From the NCBI RefSeq assembly GCF_000026545.1, contig NC_011601.1: DNA of 64,000 nucleotides. One strand, given 5' to 3'. This document shows, piece after piece, positions 42,201 through 45,200 of this stretch (positions within the stretch are counted from its first letter, which is position 1; every line of letters begins with the position of its first letter). Position numbers: made by a program. Origin of the DNA: Escherichia coli O127:H6 str. E2348/69 (GTDB lineage: Bacteria > Pseudomonadota > Gammaproteobacteria > Enterobacterales > Enterobacteriaceae).

Positions 42201-45200
42201 CTGCCAGTCGGTCTTATCGAACAGCAGCGCTGGAGTCGTGCCACGGACACCTACGGTGTTAAGCACCAGCGAAAAGAACGTCCCTATGAAGAAAAAGAAA
42301 GTTACCGCTGGCAGCAGGCTTCGGAGCGCATGGCCGAACGGCTGGGGGAGATACAGAAACGGGTAATCACTGTCTGTGACCGGGAAGCGGATATCTGGCA
42401 TTACCTGCATTATAAAGTCAGCCACGGGCAGCGCTTCGTGGTGCGTGCAGCACAGAATCGCCGGCTGGAAGAAGCACCCGGCAAGCTCTTCGAACTGCCG
42501 GAAGTCCTGGCAACCGCGGGAAGCCACACGCTGAATGTGATGCAAAAAGGCGGGCGGGCAGCCCGCCAGGCCCGGATGTTCATCAGTTACAGCGAAGTCA
42601 GCATAAAAAATCCCGACAACAGCGGCCAGGCGCTCCCGCTCACGTATGTCTGTTGCCGGGAGCAGGCAGAGGACGGCGCCTGCTGGCATCTGCTGACGTC
42701 AGAAAAAGTGGCGAGTGCCGCCGATGCGCGACGTATCGTCAGCCATTACGAGCGACGCTGGCTGATAGAGGAATACCACAAGGCGTGGAAAAGTGGTGGT
42801 ACATGTGTGGAATCGCTGCGAATGCAGACCCGGGATAACCTCGAGCGCATGGTGGTTATCAAGGCGTTTATCGCGGTGCGGGTGCTGGGCCTGCGGCAGG
42901 GCGGTATCAGTGAAGAAACACAAAATGACAGCTGTGAGAAAATACTGACGCCGACAGAGTGGAAACTGCTGTGGGTTAAGCTGGAAGGAAAACCGCTTCC
43001 GTCACAGATGCCGACACTGAAATGGGCCTGTCTGAAACTGGCGAAACTGGGGCGATGGCATGACAGCAAACGCACCGGTCGCCCCGGTTGGGTAGTCATG
43101 TGGGATGGCTGGTTCAGACTTCAGGATATGGTTGAGGGTTACCTGGTGATGAAGTCTCTTGATCAGGAGATCTGATCAAGAGACAGACAAATGCAGGGAG
43201 GAAACAGAGGTGAATCAGATGCCGACGCTAACCGTCTCCGGTAGTGTGCTGCCGCCATCAATCACATTCTGTGTACCGGTTAAATAGCTGGATTCATCCG
43301 ATGCGAGGAAGGCCGCCAGTTCGCCGACTTCCAGCGGATCGGCGAGGCGACGCATCGGGATTGCTTTCGCCATTTCAGTCAGCACCGATTCTGGATCTTC
43401 CGGGTTTGACTGGCGGGCAATGCTTTCCGCCATTGGCGTGCGAACGTATCCAGGGCAGATGGCGTTAACGCGAATACCAGACTGCGCGTACTCCACCGCC
43501 AGCGATTTAGTCAGGCCAACAATCGCCGCTTTCGTTAAGGCGTACGCCGTTTCACCCGGGTCTGCCACCATATCGCCAGTAACTGAAGACATCATCACAA
43601 TGCGGCCATCTTTGCGGGCAATCATCTCCGGCAGCACCGCCTTCGTGACGTTCCATACGCCTTTTATATTGATATCAATATGGAAATCGCGATCTTCATC
43701 GCTCATATCGAGGAAACTGCCCAGACGACAAACGCCTGCGTTATTCACCAGAATATCAATGCGCCCTTCTTTTTCCTTAGCGCGCTTAATAGCTGCGGCT
43801 ACCGACGCCGGGTCACGCACATCGGCGACAACCGCCGTACAGCGATGACCACGACCACACAGTTCGTCCGCCAGCTTTTCGATCTCAGGGGAGATATCCA
43901 GCAAGATTAGGTTTGCGCCATGACGCGCAAAAGTTCTGGCAATTCCTTCGCCAATTCCCTGCAATGCGCCCGTAATCAGTGCTGTCTTGCCCGTGAGTTT
44001 ACCCATTTTAATGCTCTCCTTGTTAATACAGAGCGTTACACTCCATTCCCTCTGAAAATACAGGATAAACAAAATATTGCTGCGGATCAGCTCACTAATT
44101 CAGGAAAATCTCAATTTAGTCGCTGCTTTATGCAGCACCTCAAGCGTTACGTCAGCGCGCAATCATTTTCAGTGACATCACATGAGTAATATTCGGACTT
44201 AATGATTCCTTTGTGTCTATCAAATCGGGATATATGATCCCATTTATCTGCAATTATTTGATCGCAAATATTAAGGTCACCACCGATGCAACTTGAAAAG
44301 ATGATTACCGAAGGCTCGAACGCCGCCTCGGCTGAAATTGACCGCGTATCAACGCTGGAAATGTGCCGGATTATCAACGATGAAGATAAAACCGTACCAC
44401 TCGCCGTTGAGCGCGTACTGCCGGATATCGCCGCGGCGATCGATGTTATCCACACCCAGGTAAGCGGCGGCGGCCGTCTGATTTATCTCGGTGCGGGAAC
44501 ATCCGGTCGTCTGGGAATTCTGGATGCCAGCGAATGTCCGCCGACCTACGGCGTGAAACCGGGCCTGGTAGTTGGTTTGATTGCTGGCGGCGAATATGCC
44601 ATTCAGCACGCGGTGGAAGGTGCGGAAGATAGCCGGGAAGGCGGTGTTAATGATCTGAAAAATATCGGCTTAACCGCGCAGGATGTGGTGGTTGGTATTG
44701 CGGCCAGCGGACGCACGCCGTATGTGATTGCCGGACTGGAATACGCACGCCAGCTCGGCTGCCGCACAGTGGGAATTTCCTGTAATCCCGGGAGCGCCGT
44801 TTCAACCACCGCTGAGTTTGCCATTACGCCAGTTGTTGGGGCCGAAGTGGTCACAGGTTCTTCGCGAATGAAAGCAGGTACGGCGCAGAAACTGGTGCTC
44901 AACATGCTCTCCACCGGGCTGATGATTAAATCCGGCAAAGTGTTCGGTAACCTGATGGTTGATGTGGTCGCCACCAACGAAAAACTGCATGTGCGCCAGG
45001 TCAATATCGTCAAAAACGCTACCGGATGTAGCGCAGAGCAAGCGGAAGCGGCATTGGTTGCCTGCGAGCGCAACTGTAAAACGGCCATTGTGATGGTGCT
45101 GAAAAATCTCGATGCCGCAGAAGCTAAAAAACGCCTGGATCAACACGGCGGCTTTATTCGTCAGGTTTTAGACAAGGAATAACCCATGGCCAAAGAGATC

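Follow-up and report, generated by a model that had tools for sequence, protein, structure and literature searches.

The murQ locus of E2348/69

The window analysed here is a stretch of 64,000 nucleotides from Escherichia coli O127:H6 str. E2348/69 (contig NC_011601.1). Positions 43215-45182 match the E2348/69 chromosome at 100% identity. Around murQ, the RefSeq annotation gives the gene order cysP, ISEc13 transposase, ucpA, murQ, murP, an 87-bp gene fragment, and yfeX (Table 1). Together with MurR, the products of murQ and murP control the recycling and scavenging of the cell-wall sugar MurNAc. In K-12 MG1655 the order is ucpA<-murR<- ->murQ->murP->yfeW, as a sequence-only reading of the window had correctly assumed, and ucpA and murQ lie 1149 bp apart, compared with 279 bp in E2348/69. 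That reading had described a gap of about 280 bp with no ORF of a size suitable for murR; its interval, 44007-44285, coincides exactly with the space between ucpA and murQ, and the only ORFs overlapping this space are antisense overhangs of the two flanking genes. A tblastn search with K-12 MurR as query (E<=1e-5) detected no homologue in the 64-kb window, and the divergent murR (RpiR/AlsR family, with HTH plus SIS domains) is not present beside murQ in E2348/69, where a remnant of ~55 nt is all that is left of it. No RNA families were found in 43900-44400 using Rfam.

Both murQ and murP are intact, with murP directly downstream of murQ at a spacing of 3 bp; of yfeW, the gene downstream of murP, the 87-bp stub is left. 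Comparison of the window's murQ with that of four other taxa gave dN/dS values of 0.015-0.055; over all comparisons the range was 0.015-0.06 for murQ and 0.02-0.035 for murP, with values in pairs that include murR-less lineages no higher than those between murR-carrying lineages. The two genes have therefore been retained under purifying selection, in agreement with the retention of murQP claimed from the sequence, and their low dN/dS suggests that selection still keeps the pair, which argues for its expression.

Table 1 Features of the ucpA-murQ-murP region in E2348/69 (window positions) and of the murR-murQ control region in K-12 (positions in K-12 sequence L003)
Feature	Position	Strand	Basis or remark
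ucpA (SDR oxidoreductase), left neighbour	43215..44006	-	RefSeq; NCBIfam equivalog NF006080, 541 bits
ucpA-murR spacer of murR-carrying strains, 128 bp, kept, almost the same as in K-12	44007..44134		alignments
Decayed murR 3' remnant, ~55 nt	44135..44189	-	alignments to K-12, ETEC4070 and other Escherichia
TTTCA-GTGACA-TCACA in the murR remnant, hypothetical surrogate CAP half-site or -35 element	44167..44182	+	8/10 match to CAP core consensus
Junction filler TATTCG, same in B2 E. coli and E. albertii	44190..44195		junction alignment
murQ-proximal 90 bp of the 163-bp murR-murQ control region, kept	44196..44285	+	alignments
Block GACT(T)AATGATTC, near-palindrome GAnTCA-A-TGATTC, candidate MurR half-operator	44196..44208		footprinting
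Imperfect inverted repeat over conserved block ATATATGAT(C)CCA and -10-like TATGAT (44233-44238)	44222..44245		footprinting
Sigma-70-like promoter GTGACC-16-AATAAT, likely murR promoter	44253..44280	-	promoter scan
murQ, MurNAc-6-phosphate etherase, intact	44286..45182	+	TIGR00274 equivalog, 511.7 bits (cut-off 302)
murP, MurNAc PTS EIIBC, intact	45186..46610	+	NF007152 equivalog, 941.9 bits (cut-off 516)
CAP-like site TxTGA-N6-TCACA (K-12)	L003 4655-4670		conserved from E. coli to Citrobacter; inside the segment deleted in E2348/69
Near-palindromic block GACTCAATGATTC (K-12)	L003 4684-4696		invariant in murR-carrying taxa
Block ATATATGATTCCA with -10-like TATGAT (K-12)	L003 4718-4730		invariant in murR-carrying taxa

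Structure and polarity of the deletion

We aligned the gap to murR-carrying strains comprising ETEC4070, K-12, and four other Escherichia lineages. These alignments bear out the absence of murR that had been proposed from the sequence, revealing a net loss of 870 bp: all of murR except a 3' remnant has gone, as have, out of the 163 bp of control region, the 73 bp nearest murR. The remnant is the counterpart of the last ~65 nt of K-12 murR; it has lost 10 bp internally, its stop codon is mutated, and it carries many substitutions, and the E2348/69 junction that follows it reads ...CACATGAGTAA-TATTCG-GACTTAATGATTCC.... Because part of murR is still in place, the short interval reflects a true deletion in this lineage rather than an insertion elsewhere.

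The gene also adjoins murQ in Escherichia sp. MOD1-EC7003, E1V33, E. whittamii, SCPM-O-B-8794, and two Citrobacter, as well as in Salmonella arizonae and another Citrobacter, where the locus carries an extra insert of ~1.9 kb. The position of murR beside murQ in these outgroups indicates that the murR-carrying state is ancestral and the murR-less allele derived. The alignments show an old deletion that took murR along with 73 bp of the divergent control region on its murR side.

The murR-less allele in E. coli and E. albertii

A 136-bp junction probe searched against 5426 complete E. coli genomes had full-length matches in 1046 (~19%), 1034 of them at an identity of at least 99%. A match to K-12 murR was found in 4379 complete genomes and the ucpA-murQ locus in 5425, so that carriers of the junction and carriers of murR (1046 + 4379 = 5425) add up to all genomes with the locus. 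Thus every E. coli genome with the locus has one allele or the other, and no junction carrier appears to have a murR match. The gene has not been relocated, the circumstance under which the sequence-only reading would have withdrawn its claim. We give no credence to an assembly error, or to a laboratory deletion peculiar to this one strain, as the source of the gap: the same junction recurs in the 1046 independent complete genomes, in E. albertii assemblies, and in metagenome contigs. The murR-less locus is a natural regulatory variant, not an error.

Sixty of the 1046 carriers were sampled by name, and the assignment to phylogroup B2 derives from these strain names rather than from typing of all 1046. 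The sampled carriers include O25b:H4-ST131, LF82, NRG 857C, APEC O1:K1:H7, PA45B, and A0 34/86, all of which, like E2348/69 itself, we take to belong to phylogroup B2. NRG 857C and one ST131 isolate have the same gene order as E2348/69, with murQ and murP intact. By the sampled names, the clinically dominant B2 lineages are fixed for the murR-less allele or hold nearly all of its carriers. In strain Z1323CEC0015 the junction is set in K-12-like flanking sequence, which indicates that the allele can be moved by short-tract recombination.

The type strain of E. albertii also lacks murR and has a ucpA-murQ gap of 289 bp. Its junction reads ...CACATTAGTGG-TATTCG-GACTTAATGATTCC..., with the breakpoints and filler of E2348/69, and the same 289-bp gap occurs in eight further contigs, including TW07627 and metagenome contigs; a ninth contig, which starts inside the gap, has the same junction. 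In the 90 bp that are retained, 4 positions separate B2 from E. albertii (96% identity) and 11 separate B2 from K-12; murQ dS is 0.40 between E2348/69 and E. albertii and 0.20 between E2348/69 and K-12. The two loci are otherwise distinguishable: unlike that of E2348/69, the E. albertii remnant is without the 10-bp loss, it has CCACA rather than TCACA in the CAP-like position, murP is broken by an IS1 after about 61 codons, and the flanking genes are typical of E. albertii. The broken murP shows that the pathway can decay after murR has been lost. We also considered accelerated evolution of the retained 90 bp, and rejected it, as 11/90 differences from K-12 is not above the local synonymous divergence (dS 0.20).

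The likeness between the two species is concentrated at the junction. On the murQ side, six bases are common to B2 and E. albertii and absent from all five murR-carrying Escherichia compared; five of them fall within 70 bp of the junction and one in the remaining ~1.1 kb to its right, and on the left there is one in 920 bp. Elsewhere, sites at which E. albertii alone deviates occur at about 36 per kb. Since only a short junction tract is common and the flanks are typical of each species, the allele must either have crossed lineages by homologous recombination or have been sorted from an old polymorphism, and the identical junction points to one old event that was spread by recombination. Several of the states shared by B2 and E. 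albertii, such as TTGTGT, are also found in Citrobacter; these would fit an origin on the E. albertii side, with the direction of transfer not established.

Control elements lost and retained

In K-12, MurR is a repressor of the RpiR/AlsR family with MurNAc-6-phosphate as inducer; it binds two neighbouring repeats in the DNA between murR and murQ and represses murQP as well as its own gene, and growth on MurNAc is faster in a mutant with murR deleted (PMC9177960). Our promoter and operator assignments are based on consensus matches and phylogenetic footprinting rather than on published footprints or start sites. By footprinting, three blocks are invariant or nearly so across the murR-carrying Escherichia and Citrobacter examined (Table 1). 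In K-12, the centre of the CAP-like site and the start of TATGAT are 58.5 bp apart, which would place CAP near -70.5, a class I position. Work by Jaeger and Mayer from 2008 reportedly described face-to-face murQ and murR promoters and, upstream of the former, a CAP site of class I, with murQ transcription reportedly dependent on cAMP-CAP and a murR deletion mutant reportedly derepressed about 20-fold.

The CAP-like site upstream of the murQ promoter is deleted in E2348/69. With this site and 73 bp of control DNA lost along with the gene, the outcome is not simply K-12 minus its repressor. The other two blocks are retained, each with one substitution that occurs in the murR-less allele only (GACTCA>GACTTA and GATTCC>GATCCC), as relaxed constraint on an operator would give, two sites being too few to prove it. 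The likely murR promoter is the same element that faces murR in K-12; in E2348/69 it points across the junction toward ucpA, and no terminator is predicted on that strand. The K-12 palindrome ACACTC-TGC-GAGTGT, which is deleted here, was also considered as a MurR operator and set aside, as it is not conserved in other murR-carrying Escherichia.

The sequence-only reading had proposed that an imperfect inverted repeat, AAATCGGGATATATGATCCCATTT, at about 44222-44245 could be a retained operator. Its position is a sensible one for an operator, since the repeat lies on a conserved block, but its symmetry does not support the proposal. As described, with 10-nt arms and a 4-nt spacer, six of the ten positions pair; allowing one bulge gives 9 pairs around a 5-nt loop, and when the dinucleotides of the 279 bp were shuffled 1000 times, 119 of the shuffles (12%) had an equal or better repeat, so the repeat is no more than chance would be expected to produce. 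Neither the gap nor the K-12 control region yielded an inverted repeat in a search with a seed of 6. At the same site K-12 and other Escherichia have 5 pairs each compared with the 9 of E2348/69, which indicates that the symmetry is a property of the murR-less allele rather than of the alleles that MurR acts on. Directional evolution of this symmetry was considered and rejected, because three of the four states that raise it also occur in Citrobacter or other Escherichia and are probably ancestral. Judging by its conservation, the block beneath the repeat probably holds the -10 element of murQ or an operator.

A CAP-like sequence in the murR remnant (Table 1) occupies the register of the deleted site, with a spacing of 13 nt between TCACA and GACT in both alleles. 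The TCACA also replaces K-12 TTCACA, which the promoter scan had paired with AATGAT. CAP-core matches of this quality are found in the window at chance frequency (24 observed, 25.8 expected), and the 986 bp able to supply the left side of the deletion contain five matches of at least 7/10. Were the deletion random, the exact register would be expected to return in about 0.5% of cases, and a class-I-like register of any kind in about 6%. At this spot murR-carrying strains and E. albertii have CCACA, and B2 has TCACA. The match in register is suggestive, at the level of a hypothesis, of selection on the breakpoint or of later improvement of the site.

Regulatory consequences

We favour the reading, to which we assign a probability of about 0.8, that an old deletion of murR and part of its control region, shared with E. 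albertii, has made murQP independent of MurR and constitutive from the retained core promoter. With no MurR, murQP would no longer be repressed by it or induced through MurNAc-6-phosphate. Transcription would start from the -10-like TATGAT with the -35 region TTGTGT, at a level set by whatever replaces the CAP input, either the surrogate site in the remnant or the TTG-containing TTGTGT itself. Freed of auto-repression, the murR promoter would fire across the junction toward ucpA, head-on against the murQ promoter. The expectation of the sequence-only reading, that murQP would be expressed without its repressor, is plausible on these elements, with the missing CAP site as a complication: its loss could leave the murQ promoter weak instead of constitutively high.

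An opposite outcome, in which removal of the CAP site and upstream promoter DNA crippled murQP and left the operon silent or nearly so and on its way out, would be in line with the conservation of the lost site and the 73 bp that went with it, with the dependence on cAMP-CAP noted above for K-12, with the IS1 disruption of murP in E. albertii, and with the additional deletion of yfeW. We nevertheless hold it to be unlikely: neither murQ nor murP is truncated, and both have dN/dS of 0.02-0.06 in pairs that include murR-less lineages; the retained 90 bp show 4 differences between B2 and E. albertii against 7/41 in the adjacent remnant, suggesting constraint; and the allele persists in 1046 genomes. 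Less probable still is that another regulator, such as a PRK11557-type MurR/RpiR paralogue, binds the retained blocks and keeps the operon under the control of MurNAc-6-P or a related signal. The survival of two conserved blocks with one substitution each is compatible with such a substitute, as is the score of 230 bits that K-12 MurR attains against a second MurR/RpiR family model, close paralogues being present in enterobacteria. Junction-bearing genomes, however, contain no murR-like DNA at the megablast level, the 64-kb window has no RpiR-like ORF, and the block substitutions are exclusive to the murR-less allele, as under relaxed constraint.

Constitutive expression from the core promoter could in principle be part of an adaptive rewiring rather than a simple loss, in which the deletion was exchanged between E. 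albertii and the B2 ancestor, provided a MurR-independent and constantly ready use of MurNAc and cell-wall sugar, had breakpoints selected for the register of a CAP half-site (with CCACA changing to TCACA later in B2), and left the murR promoter driving ucpA. We regard this combination as improbable; if it were true, the main extraintestinal-pathogenic E. coli lineages would have a distinct peptidoglycan-sugar physiology.

Relation to known systems

To our knowledge, K-12 is the source of all published work on murQP regulation. The repressor and the CAP site are missing from about a fifth of the E. coli sequenced, including ST131, and from E. albertii, and the K-12 model therefore does not describe them; by the sampled names, further B2 lineages, extraintestinal and adherent-invasive, are among these E. 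coli. Should murQP be constitutive in such strains, this could bear on how they grow on peptidoglycan debris in the gut or urinary tract, on the flux of sugars derived from muropeptides, and on how transcriptome or Tn-seq data are read. Because the junction is identical in two species, it also offers a clean marker for gene flow between them. A search of the full-text literature, with pan-genome supplements outside its range, found no published description of the murR-less allele. The missing murR is visible in public annotation and the loss of a regulator is a common type of event, so that the locus is a variant of a known system and not a new one; its modest interest lies in the association with B2, in the cis elements lost with the repressor, and in its being shared with E. 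albertii.

The nearest known system is the murR-murQP(-yfeW) locus of K-12, which occupies the same chromosomal place between ucpA and yfeX, encodes MurQ and MurP proteins with 98% and 99% amino-acid identity to those of E2348/69, and shares with that strain the 90 bp nearest murQ, including both conserved blocks and the promoter of murR type. E2348/69 differs in having neither murR nor the murR-proximal 73 bp with the CAP-like site, in the reduction of yfeW to a stub of 87 bp, and in 11 substitutions within the retained 90 bp. Engineered murR deletion mutants of K-12 resemble the natural allele in having lost the repressor and kept murQP; in these mutants murQ is derepressed, and growth on MurNAc is faster and without lag (PMC9177960). 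Unlike them, the natural allele has also lost cis DNA, namely the CAP-like site and part of the operator region, and has had a long time for compensatory changes.

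Mosaic flanks of the murR deletion

In E. coli Z1323CEC0015 (L004 2878-3156), K-12-like sequence lies no more than a few tens of bases from the deletion junction on either side; the murR-less allele has therefore been transferred into another background, by very short-tract recombination. We also compared positions 44286-46610 of the window with two other B2 strains (L043 and L044). E2348/69 diverges from these strains in the 3' half of murQ and at the start of murP, with 84-92% identity in several 50-bp windows; in several 100-bp windows of the same stretch it is identical to the murR-positive strain ETEC4070. 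The flanks of the deletion are mosaic even inside B2.

Downstream of murP, where K-12 carries yfeW, the window keeps only a stub of this gene. Across the complete E. coli genomes, yfeW is full length in 4148 of 5426, and ~1255 of the 5426 retain just its first ~83 bp; the truncated group includes non-B2 strains, such as ETEC4070. The yfeW truncation is a second deletion polymorphism at the murR-murQP locus, partly independent of the murR deletion.

Coordinates of features at the murR-murQP locus and in comparison loci
Feature	Location	Details
Retained murR-type promoter	window 44253-44280	minus strand, toward 44006
ISEc13 (IS4-family) element	window ~41637-43196	transposase ORF 41802-43175, + strand
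yfeW (pbp4B) stub	window ~46615-46701	87-bp 5' remnant
IS1-cut murP, E. albertii	L034 3401-4312; L035 3615-4312	
Insert between murR and murQ	L011 2084-4000; L020 2081-4000	~1.9 kb

Sequences upstream of ucpA and cysP

The retained murR-type promoter, a predicted sigma-70-like element, now faces ucpA from ~240 bp away, with no terminator predicted between the two. In strains that lack murR, ucpA may have acquired an additional upstream promoter that is independent of MurR.

The cysP-ucpA interval is itself interrupted by ISEc13, ~140 bp upstream of the cysP start. The element has Tn5-like ends (CTGTCTCTTATACACA...) and is bordered on either side by a repeated ACAAATGCAG. It is not present in the B2 strains NRG 857C and ST131, and the insertion is therefore specific to E2348/69; it could have consequences for the promoter region of cysP.

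Related loci in other species

In E. albertii genomes bearing the same murR deletion, an IS1 insertion, at which the draft contigs stop, breaks murP after ~61 codons. These genomes retain murQ but have probably lost MurNAc uptake. In Salmonella enterica subsp. arizonae and one Citrobacter, murR and murQ are separated by an insert encoding ORFs of 361 aa, which looks porin-like by eye, and 259 aa, so that the divergent murR-murQ control region is split.
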